Assembly (NCBI GenBank): GCA_900617105.1
Contig: UYFQ01000179.1
Location: forward strand, 1 to 34,417
DNA: 34,417 nt
Reading direction: 5' to 3'
From: Hydrurus foetidus
Taxonomy: Eukaryota
In this document: piece by piece, positions 314-34,417 of the stretch
How positions within the stretch are numbered: the stretch's first letter is position 1
Layout: every line of letters starts with the position of its first letter
The notes under the pieces: generated by a model
Databases searched by the model: none
Told to the model about the DNA's origin: nothing
Seen by the model: the letters and a program-made list of their open reading frames with translations, nothing else
Made by a program: the position numbers and the translations under genes

Positions 314-505
314 TGTAGCTCGAATGGGAAAAGGAAGAGGTGGAAGGCTAGAAGAGGTAGTTAGTTACAGCAGGAAGCTAGAAGCTAGGGTTAACTTCTA
401 CGTGGAGGCTGTAAGTGGCTACGACGATACAACAGACTGTAGTGTACGGTGGGTAGTGTACCGTAGTACTATCCGGTAGGATCGGGACCTTGAGGAACTA
501 CCACA
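314..505 (-). repeat. 3' LTR of element 1 (192 bp)
   Basis: Identical to 6759-6954 except one small indel patch (GACCTTGAGGAAC vs GACCTTGGACCCGGAAC). Confidence 0.97.
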
Positions 506-527
506 TACCCCACTTATCCTTCTTTCT
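506..527 (-). other. Polypurine tract of element 1
   Basis: Minus strand AGAAAGAAGGATAAGTGGGGTA immediately precedes the TGTGG start of the 3' LTR. Confidence 0.85.
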
Positions 528-849
528 CAAAGAAAATCTAAATAAACTAAACTATGGCGAAACCCCGTTTCTATGTTGAAAAATAACATGATAACATAAA
601 TGATAATGAATGAAAACCAAAAATATGTATGTTTTAAATGCGAAATTATATGAAGGGTTTCGGTTTCGGTGGAGAAAGATAAGGATAAGGGCGGTATGCC
701 AGAATCGTTCTGTTGTACGAGGGTCAAACGTAATTATGTCAGATTTTACTGACTAAAAACCATAAAAATCCCTCGTGGGCAAATCTTCAAAAGATAATAC
801 GCCTGCCTCGGTGGTTGATCCTCAATATTCCTGGGAACAAACGCGACAT

Positions 850-1020
850 GTTATTGTTCCTCAGTATACATGGAGTGCATCACAGAGCCGGAGATTCTTC
901 CGGCTCCCATGTATTATGTGAGTCATCATAGTTGAGCCATTTTACATGGAAACGACATCGTAGTCGGTTTCTTCTTATCACCCGAGTGATTAAGAACTTC
1001 TCAACGAAATACTCCATGTA
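850..1020 (-). pseudogene. Chromodomain at integrase C-terminus (frameshifted)
   Basis: Joining frames gives YMEYFVEKxLNHSGDKKKPTTMSFHVKWLNYDDSHNTWEPxKNLRLCDALHVY, matching the chromodomain pattern Y-x-VE...VKW-x-x-Y...NTWEP. Confidence 0.85.
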
Positions 1021-1153
1021 ATCGCGACGTGCTGCATCGGTATGCCCATCGAAGGTATCATAATTGAATATCTTAAGATTGTCACATGTACACTAATGTG
1101 TTAACCGCGAGAACATACTCGATCCTTCAAAATACAACAAAAATCTTTTCCAT

Positions 1154-2034
1154 TTAGTGTGTAGTCGAGTTGGAGGGTGTTCTTGTTTTACCAAGACATA
1201 CGACCCTATAGGAAACACTGTCAAACCGGATGTCGACTTTTGTGTTTTTCATCACATTTTGAAGTGAGTCGATTGCTGCATCGAGGACTTTGTCCTGTAT
1301 CTCGATTAAATCAGCAATATATGTTGAATTTGATGATGATACCACTGGTAACAAATGAGGTGTTAAAATTCCTCGATTCAAATCAAGTTTATCCGCAAAT
1401 AGGATAGATGCTGGACTTGCACCCGTACGTTTATTAACTGAACTATTTATATTCGTTGTACGAACGGAATGCATTTTGCATAATTGGACAAGGGACGGTG
1501 TATCGAACACCAATCCTTTCAAATGTCTATTTATCTCTTTATTGACTCGTTCAACAATCGCATTCTCTTGAGAAGAGTAAGCTAGAGTGAGATTATGGGG
1601 CGTCCCCGTAAGATCTAAGAACTCTTTATGAGATCATTAGCGAAATGGGATCCACGATCCGATCTTATCATGTTTGGCGAACCAAATCGACCAAAATGTG
1701 TTAATAAATTCTCCGCTGCAGATTCGGCAGTAGCGTCCTTACACCAGAACATTTCTGTCCATCTGGAGAAGGTGTCAATTATGACGAGAATATACCCCTT
1801 ATCGGGAAAAGGACCCACAAAGTCAATATTCAACGTATCGAAAATTGCGTGAGTAGAAGTTGAAAAATGGGCTGCATTGATTTTCGCATCAACCGCACTT
1901 AGTTTTTGACAACACGGACAGTTTCGTATGTATGAACGTACGTGCTGTTTCATATTTTCCACACTTGGTTTAGACTGTAAAGTCGAGTGAGGGTTCGGTC
2001 GACACCGTTGTGACCAACAATTGCATTGTGGCAC
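1154..2034 (-). pseudogene. Integrase of element 1 (split by 1-bp frameshifts)
   Basis: HHCC zinc motif (HNAIVGH...CPCC), DFVGP, IDTFSRW, IRSDRGSHF, and QENAIVERVNK in the next frame (D,D35E core). Confidence 0.93.
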
Positions 2035-3371
2035 ATTTGAATATGAAGTATTTGTTCATCTGTGGCCGGTTCGATGACCGTTAAAGCCGCCACACTTGTG
2101 GAAGAAGATGTAGATGATGATGAACAATCATCTTTGACAATTGTCAATGGTAGAGCAATCTCAGTAAGATTCGGACATAAACGTGACAGCGCATCGGCTA
2201 GTTCGTTATCAGATCCTTTAACAAAATGAACGGTGAAATCTAGTTCTTGCATTGCAATGAACCACCGTGCTACCATCGAAGTAGGATTTTGTTTCATATA
2301 TGTCAAATTCATATGATCAGTATGAATAGTGAATTTTCGATCTCGGATAAGGTAATCCAATTGTTGGCAACAATAAAAGATAGCGTAAGCCTCCTTTTGT
2401 ATTGTTGACCAATTAATCTGAGTTGCAGATAAAGATTTGCTAATAAAAGCGATTGGTTTCCATGAGTCATTAATGACTTGGAATAATACACCACCGATTC
2501 CATAATCAGATGCATCAGTATATAATCTGATGGGTGAAGTTTCGTCGATGAAATACATCAATGGACAACGAGATACAGCGATCTTTGTCTCATTGAATGC
2601 GTTTTTCCCCTCGAGGGTCCAAAAAATTGGAGAGCGTTTAACCGCTTTTGGATCCACCATCATGTGAAGTGGTTTTACCATTTCTGAGTGAAAAGGAACG
2701 AATTGACGGAAATAATTGGCTAAGCCAAGGAATCCCCGTAATGCCGTAACTTCTTTTGGAAGTGGAAAGTTGAGAACTGTCTCAATCTTTTCTTTCGACA
2801 TGGATAATCCATCTTTGTCGATGACTCGTCCGACGTACTCGATACGTTTAAGACCGAATCGGCATTTCTTTGCTTTGAGTTTAAGATTTTTAAGCCGAAA
2901 TCTCTCAAAGACTTTCCTCAAGTTCAAAAGAAACTCTGCTTCGCCCCGGCCATATACAATGCAATCGTCGAGGTACATCTCGCAACAGCTGTATATGAGA
3001 CCGTGAAGGACCGTTGTCACCATCTGCTCTTGAAAGTAAGAGGGGGCACGACAAGGGCCAAAAGGCAATCTTGTGAATTGAAACACCCCCATGAAACATA
3101 TAAATGCCGTATAGATTCGGTGGGGTGTATATAAGGGAGCTTGATGGTAACCCGCGGTTAAATCCATCACCCCATAAATATCCGGTTTTCGATTACCGAT
3201 CCTCTCAAAGAGGTGTTTGATATTTGGTAGTGGAAAGGAGGCCGGCTCAATGCATTCATTGAGTGCGCGATAATCGATGCAGGTTCGATATGTATCGGCT
3301 GTCTTATTTACCATTACAGGATGACTGTAGTATGCAGCGTTCGACCTCTCGATCACACCATCTTCCAACAT
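1950..3371 (-). CDS. pol: Reverse transcriptase / RNase H of element 1 pol
   Basis: CIDYRALN, MDLTAGYHQ, RLPFG, YLDDCIV, LRGFLGLANYFR, LYTDASDYGIGGVL, EAYAI, TDH, NELADALSR. Confidence 0.97.
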   Translation of the reverse strand: MLEDGVIERSNAAYYSHPVMVNKTADTYRTCIDYRALNECIEPASFPLPNIKHLFERIGNRKPDIYGVMDLTAGYHQAPLYTPHRIYTAFICFMGVFQFTRLPFGPCRAPSYFQEQMVTTVLHGLIYSCCEMYLDDCIVYGRGEAEFLLNLRKVFERFRLKNLKLKAKKCRFGLKRIEYVGRVIDKDGLSMSKEKIETVLNFPLPKEVTALRGFLGLANYFRQFVPFHSEMVKPLHMMVDPKAVKRSPIFWTLEGKNAFNETKIAVSRCPLMYFIDETSPIRLYTDASDYGIGGVLFQVINDSWKPIAFISKSLSATQINWSTIQKEAYAIFYCCQQLDYLIRDRKFTIHTDHMNLTYMKQNPTSMVARWFIAMQELDFTVHFVKGSDNELADALSRLCPNLTEIALPLTIVKDDCSSSSTSSSTSVAALTVIEPATDEQILHIQMCHNAIVGHNGVDRTLTRLYSLNQVWKI

Positions 3372-3468: not shown

Positions 3469-5517
3469 TTATCTCAAACGGCTTGAGGTCAGCAGCTTGC
3501 GGGCTAGCTTATCACTGAATATATCAGCGAATTCAGAACAGAGAGTACGGAGATCCTTTTGAAGGCTTTCATCTCCTTCAAAATGAATCTGAGACAAGAA
3601 ATCATCCGGCCCGTTGGGCGGTACATTCCGGCACGTCTTGTCACGCAAGAAAGGTGCGAAGGTATCAGTTTTATCATCGTCAATCTCGTCAACGGAGAGT
3701 GCGACACCGCTTGGCCATATGGCTTCCACGTCATAGTCTGATGTAACTGTGTCCCCAGAGGTATGTGTGAGGATGGGAATCGAGTCACCATCTAGGTGCG
3801 GGGTATCACCCGTACGTTTCGCGAGTACAGTCGAGACACTGTCCAGTCGCTGACAACCCACATCACCACATGGACTTTGGGTAGCTACTCCCTTGGTACC
3901 ATCCTGGGTAACGTTACACGTGAACGTTGTATGACAATCTGACCCTACGACTTCCTTGGTTAGAGGTGCGTGCAGAATGGCCTTCTTAGGTGTTGGCATT
4001 GGGCAGAGACCGTATGGTTCTCTCCGATTCGAAAGTCTTGCTTTGGTGATACCCTTTAACATATCGTATGTAGGTGTAATCGACTCCACTTCCGGTTCGT
4101 CGGGTATAAAACCCTCAGATATCATACGTCTGGTGTACTTGTGCCAGTGAAGTGGGTCAAGCTTGGCTATCGCTTCCCTTTCTTCAAACTCGAGCCAACG
4201 AGCATCACGCTTCCTTTTGTTCTCGGCACTAAGCTCGGGAGAAATACCAAAAGCGAAAGGTGTTAATGACATAAAATCATATTTATTTACAGTTTTTCGA
4301 CTTAGTAAAAGTTCAATGTCTGTGTTCCTATTAACCCGCATCGTTAAAGGGATGGTATGACATTCGCCGTCATAAGAGTGAAATTTAAGAATTAAATCAA
4401 TCATTTCGTTATTTATATAGCACTGGCCATCGAGACCAGAGCAAACAGTAATGGGTTTAGAAGCTTTATAACAGTCATGTTTAGCATTCAACTTATCAAT
4501 CATCGTGAAAGAAATAAAATCCTCGGAGTAATTGGCGGTATCGAGTACGGCCTTGCCCACAACGCGTCGTACGCTAGATTGGCGCTCCATATTCTTATCC
4601 TGTATCAAAACCGTTACGTTGAGATGATCAGAAGGTAGAATTGATGGATCATGCAAAAATTCATCGGGAATAAATGCTGGAATGACCGATGCAGTAATGC
4701 ATGATACTGAATGTTCCATGTCAGTGACATCAGATGAATCGACATCAGGATCATATGTACCTTGTTGGTTTGCAGAGCCGTTGCTCGCGTTGTTATCCCC
4801 TTGGGGTGGGTTGTATCGACCCCCTCGAGGGTTTTTACCTTGATACCCTCTGCCACCACCTTGGTTGCCCGTAGGACCAGGGTTCCCTTGGTTGCGGTTT
4901 TGGTTACTTTGGTTTCCGTAACCTTGGTTGTTGTGGTTTCCGGAACCTTGGTTCTGGTTACCTTGGTTTTGATTCCCACGGTTTCCCGAACCTTGGTTTT
5001 GGTTTCCCTGGTTTGGGTTGAACCCCTTACCTCCACCCTGGTTACCCTTGTGCTTCTTGTTATTGCACATCAAGTAAGGGGGTGCCCCTGCAGGGTGGAA
5101 TCTCTCCCTGGTTTCGAACCCAGGTAGGATGAGTCTTTCCTGCCACATAACTTCCCCTTGTGCCAGCCATGCCTTACCTACAAACGAATCAGACCAGTTA
5201 CAGCCGTGATCGTTGTTGGTATCGGAATAGTACATGACTGTACAATCTGATAGAATATGTGCAGGGTTTCCGCATGAGCGACAAACCCGGGCAGCGGATA
5301 CTAACGGTTCGTCAAGTGTCGAACGTACCGCCAGGTTGCTACTCCCACTTGGGATATCTACATCACGGATAGCCAGTGTGCTCGCCCGCTTTTTAGTAGA
5401 GCGGGGAGGAGGGACTGCTGTACTCGGAAACGAGTAGACAATGTCAGGGTTGCCATAACTCCTGCTCATGTGAATTGCGTCGCGAGCCGCCGTGACGACC
5501 GCGATAATGCGCAGCAT
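3469..5517 (-). CDS. Gag C-terminal part with zinc knuckle, G/N/Q-rich linker and aspartic protease (element 1)
   Basis: CRSCGNPAHILSDC = CX2CX4HX4C; AVLDTANYSEDFIS protease motif; 682-aa ORF. Confidence 0.9.
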   Translation of the reverse strand: MLRIIAVVTAARDAIHMSRSYGNPDIVYSFPSTAVPPPRSTKKRASTLAIRDVDIPSGSSNLAVRSTLDEPLVSAARVCRSCGNPAHILSDCTVMYYSDTNNDHGCNWSDSFVGKAWLAQGEVMWQERLILPGFETRERFHPAGAPPYLMCNNKKHKGNQGGGKGFNPNQGNQNQGSGNRGNQNQGNQNQGSGNHNNQGYGNQSNQNRNQGNPGPTGNQGGGRGYQGKNPRGGRYNPPQGDNNASNGSANQQGTYDPDVDSSDVTDMEHSVSCITASVIPAFIPDEFLHDPSILPSDHLNVTVLIQDKNMERQSSVRRVVGKAVLDTANYSEDFISFTMIDKLNAKHDCYKASKPITVCSGLDGQCYINNEMIDLILKFHSYDGECHTIPLTMRVNRNTDIELLLSRKTVNKYDFMSLTPFAFGISPELSAENKRKRDARWLEFEEREAIAKLDPLHWHKYTRRMISEGFIPDEPEVESITPTYDMLKGITKARLSNRREPYGLCPMPTPKKAILHAPLTKEVVGSDCHTTFTCNVTQDGTKGVATQSPCGDVGCQRLDSVSTVLAKRTGDTPHLDGDSIPILTHTSGDTVTSDYDVEAIWPSGVALSVDEIDDDKTDTFAPFLRDKTCRNVPPNGPDDFLSQIHFEGDESLQKDLRTLCSEFADIFSDKLARKLLTSSRLR

Positions 5518-6182
5518 GGCGACTTCCCACGTCTTGGGGACTCATTGTCACGTGCTTTATGAGCGACGTAATCACCCAAGATTCGGCTCCCTCGAGGGAG
5601 TCGTTTCTCAAGAATCGCTATCAACTCGGCATGCTGAGATGCGGTGATATGACGGACACGTTCGTGATCCGTGGCGATCTCTTTGTACGCCATGTACGTT
5701 ACTAACTCTTCCTCATCGGAGGAAAGAGAATAGTGGAAAGGGACCTTAGCAAACAGTTCTGCTAAGGTATGATCCCCTTGTTTGTTCTTGCAAAAGTATT
5801 GCATTACCAACTTGCCAACACTCTCTATCGGAAGGAGGTTTTGCCAATTAAGGCGTTGCTCGTTGGTAATAACTGCCAGTGTCGACTGATCAGTTAAGAT
5901 TTTAACATGAAGCAAATCGATTGCTTGACGTTGCATGCATTGCTTAATATGCAAGTGAGGTAAGCGTTGTGCTTGCTCATAGAATTCTTCAGCATCCTGC
6001 GGAGTAATATAATCTCCCCGTAGGATGAATATCTCACGCTGGATCTGAAGCGTCTGGGGAAAACCCATGCTTGACGATTGTGAGCTTTGTGAGATGTTAA
6101 GGATGTTTCCTTCCTCATCAACCTCATGCTCGTTCTCTGGCTCATTTGGCTCAGGCTCAGGATGTAGACCCTCGTCTTCCAT
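5466..6182 (-). CDS. gag: Gag N-terminal part of element 1 (joined to the next ORF by a frameshift near 5540)
   Basis: First long ORF downstream of the 5' LTR; the alternative frame reads PKTWEVAMLRII into the 682-aa ORF. Confidence 0.75.
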   Translation of the reverse strand: MEDEGLHPEPEPNEPENEHEVDEEGNILNISQSSQSSSMGFPQTLQIQREIFILRGDYITPQDAEEFYEQAQRLPHLHIKQCMQRQAIDLLHVKILTDQSTLAVITNEQRLNWQNLLPIESVGKLVMQYFCKNKQGDHTLAELFAKVPFHYSLSSDEEELVTYMAYKEIATDHERVRHITASQHAELIAILEKRLPRGSRILGDYVAHKARDNESPRRGKSPCCALSRSSRRLATQFT

Positions 6183-6747
6183 CTCCTATCGTAGGATGAG
6201 CAATCGATATAAATCGAATTGTATCGAAGCGCGGACGAGCTTTCCTCGTCAAAAATTTTTGCGAGAGCTTCGCCTCGTTCGCGTATCGAGTACTTTACGC
6301 AAGTAACAGCGAATGAGATGATTTCAACCCACTCTTGTCGAGAAAAATTCTATGGCGTCGAAGCCGAATTTTGGGTGATAAAAATTTTGGTGTCCTGTTA
6401 AGGATGAAGGAAGAACTTCCTGTCGACCAAAAGACGTCCTTAGACTAATCTGATGTCTCTAGCAGTGGAACCGGTGTCCAAATTGCCAGTGGAGAACTCC
6501 TTAATTTCGAGTTGGGAAGCCTCTCGCGACTTCGACCAAAAACGAACTTTTGAAAACACCTTTCGGAGGGTTTCAAGCAGGAAGCGGCTATGCCAAACTC
6601 CTGTAAACTTAAACTAAGTTCTCGGAGCTTCGGGCTCAGCGAGAAAACGACTCCTCGGAAGTCGTGGAGTGAGTATACTCCTTTGGAAGTCTATCTAAAG
6701 TTTGGGACGAGTAGATGGGTAGAAAAGAAGAGAAGGAGGATGAGCGG

Positions 6748-6759
6748 AATAGCGCTATT
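6748..6759 (-). other. Palindromic PBS-position motif AATAGCGCTATT (element 1)
   Basis: Perfect 12-bp palindrome overlapping the terminal A of the 5' LTR; no TGG tRNA-type PBS. Confidence 0.85.
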
Positions 6760-6954
6760 GTAGCTCGAATGGGAAAAGGAAGAGGTGGAAGGCTAGAAGA
6801 GGTAGTTAGTTACAGCAGGAAGCTAGAAGCTAGGGTTAACTTCTACGTGGAGGCTGTAAGTGGCTACGACGATACAACAGACTGTAGTGTACGGTGGGTA
6901 GTGTACCGTAGTACTATCCGGTAGGATCGGGACCTTGGACCCGGAACTACCACA
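6759..6954 (-). repeat. 5' LTR of element 1 (196 bp)
   Basis: Direct repeat of 314-505 with TG..CA termini. Confidence 0.97.
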
Positions 6955-6958
6955 TTGC

Positions 6959-7296: not shown

Positions 7297-7304
7297 CACG
7301 TAAC

Positions 7305-7497
7305 AGTGGCAAATTGAACATTTTAGGTAACAAACTTTATGTTTCAGTAGCAAATTTATTCTAATAGTGGCAAATTGAACATTTTAGGTAACAAACTTTA
7401 TGTTTCAGTAGCAAATTTATTCTAATAGTGGCAAATTGAACATTTTAGGTAGCAAATTTCATGTTTTAGTAGCAAATTTATTCTAATAGTGGCAAAT
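7305..7497 (+). repeat. 61-bp tandem repeat, ~3.2 copies, in hAT subterminal region
   Basis: AGTGGCAAAT recurs at 7305, 7366, 7427 and 7488. Confidence 0.92.
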
Positions 7498-7929: not shown

Positions 7930-10900
7930 ATGTCGTTACTCCCCTATGCTTGCTTCATAGTGGACAGCGTTGAAAGAGTTGGCAACTTTCTCATCGATTT
8001 ACTGGGCTGTCAGGATTTTCAAAGAGAAGCTCTCGAGAAGCCCGTGCATCATCGAATTATTCTCCTTCCTGGTGGATCTTCCATCACTATCGTACAGAGA
8101 AGCAGCTGTGACGAGGCCACTCTGGCTGCTTTCAATAGCTATGCAGTGAAATTCATGTTTGTTGCTGTCGAGGATGTTCAGAAAGTTCGAATTGCTGCAG
8201 CAAAATTAGGGGCACAGATAACGAGAGACGATGTAGCTGACAGAGTCTCAATTTGCTTTCTTGATGGTGTTGATGAGATAATTATTCATGCATTAGACGC
8301 TGAGAAGAGCATGGGGAGTCCGCATGATATGATAATGAGTGCAATGTCCTCCCAAGTGCAAGCCAAAAGTCTTGAAGATGTGGCAGTTGCAGGTATCTAC
8401 ATTAAATCTTTCTGACGAGAATTATGATGTTGATCTGTTTTAAGGGGTCACATCAAGTATCGATAACTTTCGCACAGCTCTCATTTAATTTTTCTTACAA
8501 AGAATAATCAGCCTTTCCCTACTGAAATGAAGTAATTCATTAAATTTTCCAAAATATCACTCCATCTGAATCTATTAAAATCTCAACGGAACTATTTGAA
8601 AGTTTTTACGATCAAGGGATTACTTGTAAGACCCTTTTTTGACTACTTTTAAAATGTGATATAGGTGTAGAAGTCGTCGATAAGGTAAAGAAAATAAATC
8701 GCAATCCTCGTCCAGTCATACCGACAATGTCAGTGTCTGTTTTATCGAACAATTCGAAGAGCTACGTTCCATGCCATCCCAATAGTCGAGAGGTGAGTGA
8801 GTGAGTCACATACTATATTTGTGATGATGTGATCCTTATGTAGTCTTGGAGGATGGCAAGTCACACTGGGCCTGAGACGAGGCTAAACATGTCTAATCCC
8901 TCACCTTGAGGAGTTCACAAGAAACAAGCTTTTTGTTTTATAATTGAGACAAAACTTCTTTGCTGATGTTTTACCCATCATGGCAGCACTGTTGAATAGT
9001 GCGGAGAGACATCGTTCAAGTTGCTGCAAAAATGGATTATTCTCATGTATAACATACAGATAATGCACTGTCACAATAACAGACTAGTTACATAGAATGT
9101 TCAACATCGCGTGAGAGATTTCAAAACGAATAAACACTATCCCTCTCTGATCCGATCCTGCATTGTACTTTAGTATATATACATAGGCCTTAATTATGCA
9201 CTATGTAAGACTCTACATGTACTCCACTGTGATATGTACGTACTGTCTAAGTGCTATATTATAACAGATGCACATGTACAGTACTTTATTATAATGTACG
9301 TACTGCACTATATTATGATCCCTCAAGGCGGTTCCTTTCGAGACGGAGATATTCAAGGGCTTCGCTCTCCTGATATGTCGCACCGATCCCGAAGACCCGC
9401 ACTACAAAAACTTCTTCACTGGAAAGTACGTACGCAGGCAATATTTTGTATTCTGTATTTTGTGTTTTGTATAGTCAGTATTTTTCGCAGAAGTGTTATT
9501 TATGTGGGTCAATGTTTTGTATTAAGATACTCAATGCGAAGCGGTTTATTGTTACTACCGTACACCCAGTGATCATAATATCATTCTATATCATTGAAAT
9601 CTCAAACTGTACTCCCTACGTTCTCTTCGTAGACATTTTATTTCTATTTGTAAAACCGTTTCTTACGCACCGAAAACGAAAACCAAGAACCCACGAGTTT
9701 TCCTTTTCGGAAAGTTTCCGACTGAGAAAACTGAGAAAACAGGATTTTTCTCAGTTTTTTAATCCTCAAAGTTTCCGAAAATGAAAACTCGCGGGTTTTT
9801 GGTTGTAGTTTGGCCTAAATATACACACATTAAGATTTTAATTACTATTATCGTATGCGATTATTCTGTTTCCCTTATTTCGTATTGCATACTAATTTAT
9901 ATAGTACTACTACGTGTTTTTCTCCATAGACGAGTTTTCGAATTACAAGTCCAAGGACAATTTAAAAGACTCCCCATAGGGGAAATAGTTGTGGGTGGGG
10001 AAAGTACAAATAAAATGGAACTGGGATTAATCATGCGATCAGTATGTAAAGCAGTATGTAATTTCGGAAGTACGATAATCAACGATTTGCATTTTTCATT
10101 TGGTGATGTACAAACATTATTAGATTATCAACTTCCGCACATGGCAGCACCACTATTTACAACAATGGATCGTGTCATTGTCACGCCAGAAAAAGGAATA
10201 TTACCAAAAATAGGGGAACCGTTTTTAGAAGATCCGGAATACCGAAAAAAAAGAATGAAATTCAAAAATATAGATGATGCAAATATACAACTCACCAATG
10301 TATACTCCTTTTCTGTTGCATCATCAAATATTGATTTTTGTAAATGGAGTACTGTTGGAATTCCTATGGTTCGATCTATGGACCTTCGGACCATTTGGGG
10401 TGATTCAGATCTAAGACTTGTTGCGTATGAAATTCCCAAAGAAATAAAAGAGAAATATCCTAATAAACACCCTCAGGAAATGGTGAATTATTTATTGAAT
10501 ATAAAGGTAAAAAAGAAAACAAAGTTAAAAATGTATGCCGCGAGAACATATATGTCTGAATGTATGCATGTCTGTCTGTATGTATGTGTGTATGTATGAA
10601 TATATGTATATATGCATGAATGTATGTGTGTATGTATGTATGTATGTATGCATATATATGTATGTGTGTGTGTATGTATGTATGTGTGTATGTATGTGTG
10701 TAGGGGTGTGTGGTGAAGGGATGTAAGTGTGTATGTATGTATGTATGTTTGTGCATACGTACCAATGACGTGTGATATTTCATCCCTGTAATTTTCACGC
10801 ATCTTGTTTTATTGATGACAAGTATTACTTCGGGTAAATTCATCTTTTTATTTGTGCACCCCATCTCACCTCCTCCGCGCCCTTTTCTTGTCCCCCCTCC

Positions 10901-29912: not shown

Positions 29913-29924
29913 AATATCGATATT
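29913..29924 (-). other. Palindromic PBS-position motif AATATCGATATT (element 2)
   Basis: Perfect 12-bp palindrome; on the minus strand it reads ...CCAC-AATATCGATATT, the same geometry as element 1. Confidence 0.75.
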
Positions 29925-30153
29925 GTGGTCTGGGGCGGGGCCTAGGACGTTGGGGCTGATGTTGGTGGACGGTTGGTGCAAGCGGTGGGCAAGGAAAGCA
30001 AGAGTCGGTGGAATAGACTTGTGTTAGTATCTTACAGTTGAGTATCTACAAGTGATGTGTACGCTAAAGTGCATTCACGTCATATGTGGAACTAAGACCT
30101 AAAAGTGGAATCTGAGCGTAATATACCTATTGTACCTAGTTAACCTAGACACA
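29924..30153 (-). repeat. Putative 5' LTR of element 2 (~230 bp)
   Basis: TGTG...CACA termini upstream of gag; the outer boundary is inferred because no second copy is present in the window. Confidence 0.55.
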
Positions 30154-30185
30154 TTGTATCCCCTTAGGAATGCAATAAGGCTACA

Positions 30186-30470
30186 ACCTCTCGTCCTCAC
30201 TCGTCCAGCTCCAGCATCACCTCTCGTCCTCACTCGTCCAGCTCCAGCATCACCTTTCGTCCTCACTCGTCCAGCTCCAGCATCACCTCCGATCCTTACT
30301 CGTCCAGCTCCCGTACCACCTCCGATCCTCACTCGTCCAGCTCTGTCACCAACTCCCGTCCTCACACGTCCAGCTCCAACACCACCAGCTCGAGCACCAC
30401 CTCCCGTCCTCACTCGTCGAGCTCCAACACTACACCCCGTCCTTACTCGTCGGGATCCAGCACCACCTCT
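30186..30470. repeat. 33-bp tandem repeat, ~8.5 copies
   Basis: Unit ACCTCTCGTCCTCACTCGTCCAGCTCCAGCATC; reads (LTRPAPASPLV)n on the plus strand. Confidence 0.92.
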
Positions 30471-30989
30471 GGTGATGGAATGTAGCTAAAGGATTATTCA
30501 GAGACTTTCAACCTCAGCTGTAAAGGACCTCTGCTGTCTAGAAGCTTTCATCGCAGCGTTCCAAAAATGTCATTTCAAAAAGAGGAATCTGAAGTGGAGA
30601 AACTGTCAACTGAGAGTCATTTGTGTCAAATTCAAAATAATTCCTACTATTTATTTCTTTTGAAGACGTGGTCTACGCAGCGCGGGTATTTTGTATTTTG
30701 ATTTTAGGTACAAAATATTAATTTGTATTCTGTATTTTATATTTCGTACATACACAAAATGGAGACAATCGACAACCAAGAGAAATCAGAGAGCATCCAA
30801 CATCCAACACTTAATGATGCTGCAAACCAGCAAACCATAATAGACAATCGACAATTCTGAATTCAGCCACAGTCCTCAGGCACCATGTCAGCTAAACAAG
30901 AATACTACATGCACAACAATACTAAATTTTTCTTGAAGTATGTAACGAAATTAAGCCTCTTTCAGTGATATCTTGCGATTGTTAGACAC

Positions 30990-32689: not shown

Positions 32690-32899
32690 TGTGTGGCTCC
32701 CTCAAGGTCTGCTACCCCATTCAGCCGATTAGATGCTGTTTCCACCTTAGTACCTTCGTGTTCACAGCCACGACTATCAGTCACTAGCTAGTTTGTGCTG
32801 CTTTGCAGAAGTTACTAGCGTACCTCCTGTTTGCATCCCTAACTAACAAGTTCCTTTTAGCCTTTAGACTTCCCTTCTTTCTAGCCCTCAAAGGTCACA
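32690..32899 (+). repeat. 5' LTR of element 3 (~210 bp)
   Basis: TGTG..CACA termini; shares CCTCAAGGTC, AGAAGTTA..CTAGC and TAACTAAC..TAGCCTT blocks, in order, with the sense-strand LTR of element 1. Confidence 0.75.
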
Positions 32900-32910
32900 G
32901 TAGATCTACT
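32899..32910 (+). other. Palindromic PBS-position motif AGTAGATCTACT (element 3)
   Basis: Perfect 12-bp palindrome starting at the terminal A of ...TCACA. Confidence 0.8.
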
Positions 32911-32990: not shown

Positions 32991-33339
32991 CCGATTACCT
33001 GCGTGGAGAATCTCGAATTTTATTCGAAATTCTCGTTTGCGAGCAATTCTTACTATCGCGAGCAAGTCTCCGAAGTCTGGTCGCCGTAAACTTAGTCACT
33101 CGGTTTCTCCCGATACTTGACTATTTTGTGGTTGCTTGAGTTTCATCTCAGCAATCCCATACCGATTACCTGCGTGGAGAATCTCGAATTTTATTCGACA
33201 TTCTCGTTTGCGAGCAATTCTTACTATCGCGAGCAAGTCTCCGAAGTCTGGTTGCCGTAAACTTAGTCACTCGGGTTGAGATTTCTCTCCCGATACTTGA
33301 CTGTCTTGTGGTTGCTTGAGTTTCATCTCAGCAAACCCA
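32991..33339 (+). repeat. ~171-bp tandem duplication in element 3 leader
   Basis: CCGATTACCTGCGTGGAGAATCTCG... at 32991 and 33162; the second copy has a 9-bp insertion. Confidence 0.93.
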
Positions 33340-33640
33340 AATTTTTGTGCAGAGTTAACTCCGTTAACTTCTGCCCATCTCTCGCCGCAAGCTTTGCTTG
33401 GCTGACGTCCGTGGATAGCTTTGCCTTCCACGCCGTTCTCGTGATTGGTCGAGCAAGTCTCCCAATCCCGACTTATTTTGTACGGATTGATTCACTCATC
33501 CGTCCAGAACCTGCTTGACTTATTGTGCTTCGTCTAATCGCCTGTTTGATTTTCATCCAAACGGCACGAGGCGAAGCCCTTGCAAAATTTTTTTGGCGAC
33601 CCCCGCTATTTAAAATTGTCAAGACATAAGTCATCTAACG

Positions 33641-34417
33641 ATGCCGTTATCCGATGACTCTTCGGAGATATCGCCGTCGCTCGCCGAATTAACCACTCAA
33701 GTAATTCCGGCAGCGACGACTGTTTCAAAAACTCAGTCGACACCAACACCGCCGACAGCAGTAGCTGCGTCTGATGGAACTGATCGACCGGTATTCCCAG
33801 TAACAATACTGGGACCTACCAACAGTTCCAATCAGGCGCCGCCTAATCGTCATAACGACGACAACGACGACGAAATTCAGACAACGCGACAATATGACAA
33901 TGTCACGTTGCGTTCGTCAGACGCAAATCGTCAGCAAACACGCCATAACGGCAACCCTGACCGGGATGACGACGACGACGATACCAACCCTCGTCGCCGT
34001 GTAGATTCACCCCCACAACGATATCTCCGTCGTCAGGGCCTCGACAGTTACGACAATTCAACTCGTCGGAATAACCTCGTCGACGGAGATGCAACGGGCG
34101 ACGACTCGCCCACTCACAATCAACAAAGTGGTAGCGAAGACGGTGGTGACGGTAATCGTTATGATAACCGTCAACGCCACGAGTCTAACCAACGTCAATA
34201 CAATGACGATAATCGAAACAACAACGATTATCGACGTTCTAATGATGACAATCAAGGTCACAACGACAATCGTCGTAACTACGATGACTCCAACCCTCCC
34301 AGGGACAACCCTCCCAGGGACAACCCTCCCAGGGACAACCGTAACACGGGCCCTTCATACGGTACGGAGCACCGTAACGACAACCGTTACGATAACGATG
34401 GACGTCAATATAGCGAT
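33641..34417 (+). CDS. Probable gag N-terminus of element 3 (259 codons, open to window end, N/D/R-rich)
   Basis: ATG at 33641 (MPLSDDSSEISP...) with no stop to 34417; absent from the ORF track because it is incomplete; positional equivalent of gag. Confidence 0.65.
   Translation, partial: MPLSDDSSEISPSLAELTTQVIPAATTVSKTQSTPTPPTAVAASDGTDRPVFPVTILGPTNSSNQAPPNRHNDDNDDEIQTTRQYDNVTLRSSDANRQQTRHNGNPDRDDDDDDTNPRRRVDSPPQRYLRRQGLDSYDNSTRRNNLVDGDATGDDSPTHNQQSGSEDGGDGNRYDNRQRHESNQRQYNDDNRNNNDYRRSNDDNQGHNDNRRNYDDSNPPRDNPPRDNPPRDNRNTGPSYGTEHRNDNRYDNDGRQYSD

Follow-up and report, generated by a model that had tools for sequence, protein, structure and literature searches.

The long terminal repeat (LTR) retrotransposons described here carry a palindromic feature that is real, clade-wide and selected for self-complementarity, and that begins in every case on the terminal A of the 5' LTR. 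As judged from sequence comparison, this palindrome occupies the place of the tRNA site, and there is about an even chance that it pairs co-packaged RNAs and lets one of them, once cut, prime reverse transcription on its partner. The window, i.e. the whole stretch of 34,417 nt that was analysed (UYFQ01000179.1), holds perfect 12-mer palindromes at 6748-6759, 29913-29924 and 32899-32910, each beginning on the last A of an LTR, just as had been predicted. The mere presence of a 12-mer palindrome means little, with 16 of them in the window vs 9.8 ± 3.3 expected under a Markov model; it is the register that is not chance. The window has 748 YACA sites when both strands are counted, and a palindrome of at least 10 bases starts at three of them, which are exactly the sites of elements 1-3. 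A TGG, the mark of a site for the tRNA 3' end, was sought within 8 nt of the LTR end of the three elements and found in none, again as predicted, and it was likewise missing from all 36 junctions inspected for it (0/36).

Three elements and their LTR ends

The features of the three elements are compiled below, where loci of relatives that were fetched are designated L followed by a number and the polyproteins of relatives P followed by a number.

6759..6954, minus strand: element 1, 5' LTR, 196 bp, TG..CA, direct repeat of 314-505
6748..6759, minus strand: element 1, putative palindromic primer site, its first base being the LTR-terminal A
6955..6958, minus strand: element 1, target-site duplication GCAA, left copy (right copy 310-313)
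3469..6185, minus strand: element 1, gag-protease region, broken by frameshifts, with ORFs homologous to P0252, P0260 and P0314
1950..3404, minus strand: element 1, reverse transcriptase and RNase H (Pfam RVT_1, RT_RNaseH)
895..2055, minus strand: element 1, integrase, frameshifted, with C-terminal chromodomain (Pfam rve, Integrase_H2C2)
506..530, minus strand: element 1, polypurine tract, a purine run adjoining the 3' LTR
314..505, minus strand: element 1, 3' LTR, 192 bp
29924..30185, minus strand: element 2, 5' LTR, 262 bp, with ends inferred from relatives
29913..29924, minus strand: element 2, putative palindromic primer site, identical 12-mer in L005, L029, L207 and L227
27839..29820, minus strand: element 2, gag-protease ORF, where the element stops
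32692..32899, plus strand: element 3, 5' LTR, 208 bp, TG..CA, with solo copy L228
32899..32910, plus strand: element 3, putative palindromic primer site
33614..34417, plus strand: element 3, start of a low-complexity ORF, presumed gag, which continues beyond the window

Element 1 is a chromodomain Ty3/Gypsy element that is complete, though it carries frameshifts. Its two LTRs are ≈ 97% identical to each other and GCAA is duplicated at both flanks; the Pfam domains follow the order PR-RT-RH-IN with an RT of the Gypsy type, for which the Ty3 enzyme is the best solved relative (E 5e-66), and a chromodomain follows the integrase at about 895-984 (Pfam Chromo, E 2.7e-8, above the cut-off). The gag-protease region shows 47-59% identity to the intact 1800-aa polyproteins P0252, P0260 and P0314. 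Here the LTR end is fixed because the 3' LTR of the same element sets the boundary. The element is surrounded on both sides by a 61-bp AT-rich repeat array (7301-7497 and 1-160), and a host gene at 9763-10599 carries a Duc1 (DUF1769) domain, the close homologs of which are all environmental proteins.

Element 2 comes without a second copy, and its junction is backed by the Gag relatives L207 and L227 (34-38% identity), with which its LTR aligns both at the start, TGTAGCC, and at the end, and in which the same palindrome follows an LTR likewise beginning TGTAGCC. Its gag-protease is 55% identical over 592 aa to the intact clade polyprotein P0269. A second RT match was sought in the window for this element and none was found, the element ending after the protease region (27839); homology identifies it as a truncated member of the Ty3/Gypsy clade of element 1. 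A 33-bp tandem array adjoins the start of its LTR (30153-30497).

The LTR of element 3 is a real one, judged by the solo LTR L228, which is 95% identical over 32692-32899 with both ends included. The end of the LTR is fixed because this copy diverges right past the terminal A. The start of the ORF (267 aa, low-complexity) was compared with Pfam and with the 290 relatives' proteins and matched neither, so that an assignment to Gypsy is not shown for element 3; of the three Gypsy elements originally predicted, elements 1 and 2 are backed by homology. Its long leader contains a tandem duplication of ≈ 175 bp, 92% identical (32991-33339). Solo LTRs were also seen inside the coding regions of other retroelements (L228:601-807 and L040 at about 5113-5393), and a target duplication sought at L228 gave no clear one.

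Register and self-complementarity among relatives

An alignment search with the RT yielded 1 viral, 78 metagenome and 29 genome-collection loci, the metagenome loci being drawn from the best 80 of 511. Among the first 79 loci, with this same limit on their metagenome part, a perfect palindrome of at least 12 bases begins at 34 of 4411 sense YACA sites, vs 1 of 2819 on the antisense side and 1.4 ± 1.2 sense sites in 30 Markov nulls, and the palindrome counts peak at the LTR-terminal A. Of 38 clade loci, 26 have a palindrome of at least 12 bases upstream of gag (2.6 expected), compared with none of 8 outgroup loci, and 31 have one of at least 10 bases (7.5 expected), where the loci include near-duplicates and the counts are not independent events. 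All seven clade loci lacking one of at least 10 bases are accounted for: L003 and L055 had been given wrong gag starts and both carry such a palindrome, and the contigs of L008, L025, L028, L040 and L049 begin too near or inside gag. L040 is actually a solo LTR within a pol gene, and L001, at first taken for another miss, has its 12-mer after a TA end.

LTR pairs found blind to palindromes point the same way, as all three clade pairs (element 1, L029 and L045) have the palindrome and both outgroup pairs (L061 and L067) have a TGG. Second copies fix the LTR end exactly in L058 and within 1-2 bases in L004 and L024; terminal inverted repeats predicted the LTR end with too much noise for a blind test. 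In the RT tree (80 rows, midpoint root) all palindrome carriers lie on one side and, L062 excepted, fall within a clade with a support of 0.997; the opposite side (support 0.964) includes six loci with TGG after the LTR. More than 100 intact single-ORF relatives belong to the clade.

Contigs of these eukaryotic Gypsy elements turned up in large number in several bacterial MAGs of the genome collection (L198-L225), one contig being 92% identical to the RT of element 1, and bin contamination is the likely reason. A looser junction pattern gave 47 matches in five such contaminated bins; of those fetched, only L235 and L247 have gag homology, and both carry perfect palindromes. Near-palindromes from the same pattern were considered as mutation intermediates and rejected for want of gag homology. 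A pattern scan of viral contigs with the junction of element 2 returned 118 loci, none with gag or pol homology, and these were discarded as chance matches.

The 41 junctions collected represent 24 distinct palindromes, and all 41 begin on the LTR-terminal A. Their lengths are 10 (n = 5), 12 (n = 29), 14 (n = 3) and 16 (n = 4), and perfect pairing reaches 1-2 bases into the LTR in 10 of the 41; the fixed length of 12 that had been claimed gives way to a range of 10-16, in which 12 is the mode and not the rule. In an alignment of 24 12-mers, both partners of the pair have changed in 42 of 144 cells and a single partner in none, such that every cell pairs, a result that is partly circular in that the rows were selected as perfect palindromes. 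Variation is greatest at the two central pairs and almost absent from the outer bases, A-(A/G)-T. A test that is non-circular for the centre defined the sites by their outer four pairs alone: 19 of 46 such sense sites have a self-complementary centre vs a background of 5.9%, and by inspection none of the remaining 27 could be placed at a junction. Close relatives differ by matched changes in the centre (L024/L056, L005/L007 and L003/L004). What is conserved is hence self-complementarity together with register, and not sequence, which is what had been proposed from the three elements of the window.

In 38 of the 41 junctions the terminal A is followed by AT or GT, and an AT likewise separates CA from TGG in L061 and L078, two tRNA-primed loci of the outgroup; these may be the two bases that the integrase removes. 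TA replaces CA before the palindrome in 4 of the 41 (L001:2728, L042:3268, L053:3788 and L207:374), and some families may have TG..TA LTRs.

Proposed pairing of two genomes and its rivals

Priming of one genome by its sister can be pictured as follows. Two packaged genomic RNAs would pair via the palindrome, forming a 12-bp duplex that folding predictions often extend by pairs between U5 and the leader. The RNase H of the RT would then cut one RNA at, or just inside, the 3' end of the palindrome, as the cleavage of an RNA duplex in Tf1 suggests, and the resulting 3'-OH could copy U5-R of the uncut partner. The new DNA would fold back on the primer's own U5-R, and trimming of the primer by RNase H down to the palindrome would provide a natural stop for plus-strand synthesis, while the uncut RNA, retaining its palindrome, would keep the overlap for the second strand transfer. 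Only one RNA may be cut, because cutting both would lose this overlap. Since each DNA strand would take its copy of the site from a different one of two antiparallel RNAs, a change arising in one arm would be carried over into the opposite arm, and such self-templating of the arms would explain the free turnover of perfect palindromes.

The pairing itself is in keeping with predicted energies, in which folding of the dimer beats that of two monomers by 10-20 kcal/mol for elements 1-3. In 29 of 37 rows the U5-leader flanks pair with each other better than they do when swapped (Wilcoxon p 0.003 for rows that are not independent and that include L207, positioned two bases off), and this pairing is individually significant in only 5 of the 37, so that the predicted extra pairing of the U5 end with the leader amounts to a modest trend. 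With regard to the cut, which the original prediction had placed after base 12, positions after base 9, 11 or 12 come into question. The duplex end alone does not set a cut after base 12, because the length varies and the pairing enters the LTR in 10 of the 41 junctions, and bases 9 and 11 fit equally well; the claim is not supported as it was made, and cutting simply at the end of the duplex would not hold for all junctions. If the AT or GT after CA is removed by integrase, this would point to a cut after base 9. It also weighs against sister priming that the weakest cores, the 10-mers, reach only about -4 to -5 kcal/mol and make poor primer duplexes without flanks, and that the model requires just one of two equivalent RNAs to be cut.

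The first alternative, which we consider unlikely, is that the palindrome is a dimerisation or packaging signal only, located at the primer site by chance, and that the primer is another RNA, be it a host small RNA, a small RNA derived from the element or an RNA binding elsewhere. Ty1 and retroviruses do have palindromic sites for dimerisation (PMC4974528), and both the central co-variation and the dimer energies fit this role equally well. It would, however, leave the elements without any primer site, and it does not account for a palindrome that starts on the LTR-terminal A at every one of the 41 junctions. Selection at the RNA level should moreover allow G-U pairs, yet one-sided changes number zero, an argument that is partly circular because the rows were chosen as perfect.

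Less probable still is a fold-back, in which a single RNA would form a stem of 4 bp with a loop of 4 bases, aided by U5-leader pairs, and, after being cut, prime its own U5. For element 1 and a number of relatives, folding of the monomer does yield this hairpin together with pairs in the flanks, and hairpins have been modelled for the GalEa elements (PMC5445492). The hairpin energies are only 0 to -6 kcal/mol, however, and cutting the sole RNA would split the primer site from the body of the genome and remove the overlap for the second transfer. Of the two options originally offered, pairing of two RNAs and fold-back, the former is the better fit, because the central four bases co-vary and always self-complement, which a loop would not need.

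We give low odds to a role at the DNA level, whereby the end of the plus-strand strong-stop DNA would anneal to DNA or genomic RNA, or a dimeric protein would bind the palindrome. A 3' end that is its own complement would be able to anneal to either strand, and DNA overhangs at the primer site are functional in Tf1 (PMC11042837), but such a role is unable to supply the first primer, and the free turnover of the sequence argues against a fixed protein site.

It is highly improbable that a host tRNA or half-tRNA serves as the primer and that the palindromy is incidental. Half-tRNA priming with AT-rich sites exists (PMC6317226, PMC10886601), but its use is reported only for Copia in plants in the available text (PMC6317226), none of the 36 junctions has the TGG of a tRNA site, and each of the 24 symmetrically co-varying sites would require its own tRNA. 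A comparison of 40 junctions with 110 non-host proxy tRNAs, which recovered only 2 of 6 positive controls, gave a longest match of 8 nt and a mean of 5.7 vs 6.5 for shuffles.

An equally small probability attaches to self-priming of the Tf1 type, in which the first bases of the transcript would pair with the site. The elements share the chromodomain Gypsy character of the Tf1/sushi group. The Tf1 primer is 11 nt long, and the internal part of the 12-mer is of this very length. Longer matches occur in the LTRs of L070 (11 nt) and L010 (9 nt), and element 3 has a match of 8 bp that includes G-U pairs. Against this, the longest exact LTR match is at most 7 nt in 34 of 36 junctions and 4-6 nt in elements 1-3, which bears out the original judgement that this is not the Tf1 geometry; an LTR complement of at least 10 nt to the site was reached in only 1 of the 36 (400 upstream bases stood for the LTR in 9 rows, and the LTR start of element 3 was taken as 32524). 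The Tf1 geometry, furthermore, has no need of a palindrome. The match in element 3 (32705-32712), which lies close to where its LTR begins, pairs with the palindrome at -11.7 kcal/mol, below all 60 shuffles of a sparse sampling, with two G-U pairs in the window and one in L228:614-621; a similar LTR segment was sought in elements 1 and 2 and found in neither, and the match is probably due to chance.

Comparison with known priming systems

The published precedent comes from Copia, namely the Conserved Hairpin Site of the fungal GalEa Ty1/Copia elements (Donnart et al. 2017, PMC5445492), which have no tRNA site and for which the mechanism was given as unknown. As here, the GalEa palindrome takes in the final A of the 5' LTR, its variants change symmetrically, and it was proposed as a replacement for the primer site (PMC5445492). 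It differs in belonging to Copia, in having 10 bases and in occurring as two dominant sequences (PMC5445492), whereas element 1 has the RT-RH-IN order of Gypsy. GalEa elements also possess a complementary arm, CHSeq2, 12-41 bp downstream (PMC5445492); a second arm of this type was sought at the same distance in our 41 junctions and found in none, with 1.2 expected.

Tf1, Tf2 and Tj1, sushi, and Tcn1 are likewise chromodomain Ty3/Gypsy elements without a tRNA primer, and their primer site adjoins the LTR (PMC4600332, PMC6317226, PMC11042837). Cleavage of an RNA duplex by RNase H is known in Tf1 (PMC4600332), and the cutting envisaged here is likely, by analogy, chemistry shared with that group. 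The primer of Tf1, on the other hand, is the 5' end of its own transcript, paired with a non-palindromic site, whereas the present site is self-complementary and has no complement in the LTR. The dictyostelid Skipper, for which a novel priming mode was suggested, resembles our elements in being a chromodomain Gypsy without TGG and without a Tf1-type LTR complement, but its site is a polypyrimidine tract and not a palindrome (PMC5006619). The retroviral DIS and the PAL sequences of Ty1 are palindromes that pair two genomes, but they are present besides a tRNA site and do not replace it (PMC4974528). For plant LTR elements three primer types are given (PMC6317226), bivalve TRIMs are another case in which priming was left open (PMC6934838), and the available text of the Helenus paper makes no mention of palindromes (PMC10886601).

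A literature search for a palindromic primer site in Gypsy, or for an experiment on one, found neither within its coverage, outside which lie Repbase Reports and most subscription papers. Gypsy families of Thalassiosira pseudonana are reportedly annotated in Repbase as self-primed by a 12-bp palindrome, with neither co-variation analysis nor experiment; if so, they would share superfamily, place, length and interpretation with our elements. The main text of the diatom paper, as available, does not mention palindromic self-priming (PMC2806351). The feature is accordingly one form of priming independent of tRNA, for which Copia supplies a published precedent and Gypsy probably one at the level of annotation. 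The present comparison contributes the co-variation of the centre, the series of lengths and the missing second arm; taken together, these make pairing of two genomes the reading that fits best.

Priming without a tRNA site is understood only for the Tf1 type, and the papers on GalEa, Skipper and the bivalve TRIMs leave the question open. From the 24 natural palindromes, the co-variation of their centre and the lack of a second arm, one would expect two non-palindromic mutants to complement each other in trans. If sister priming is true, dimerisation and priming would merge into one signal, RNase H would make a primer out of the sister genome, and the elements would be freed from the host tRNA supply and from silencing by tRNA fragments. 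Beside the tRNA, half-tRNA and Tf1 modes, these elements would then represent a fourth mode of LTR priming, to which we assign a little less than an even chance, in which a genome is cut at the palindrome and sacrificed as the primer of its sister, the site serves as the template for its own compensatory changes, and which would have arisen more than once, in a protist clade of chromodomain Gypsy elements and in the fungal GalEa Copia elements.
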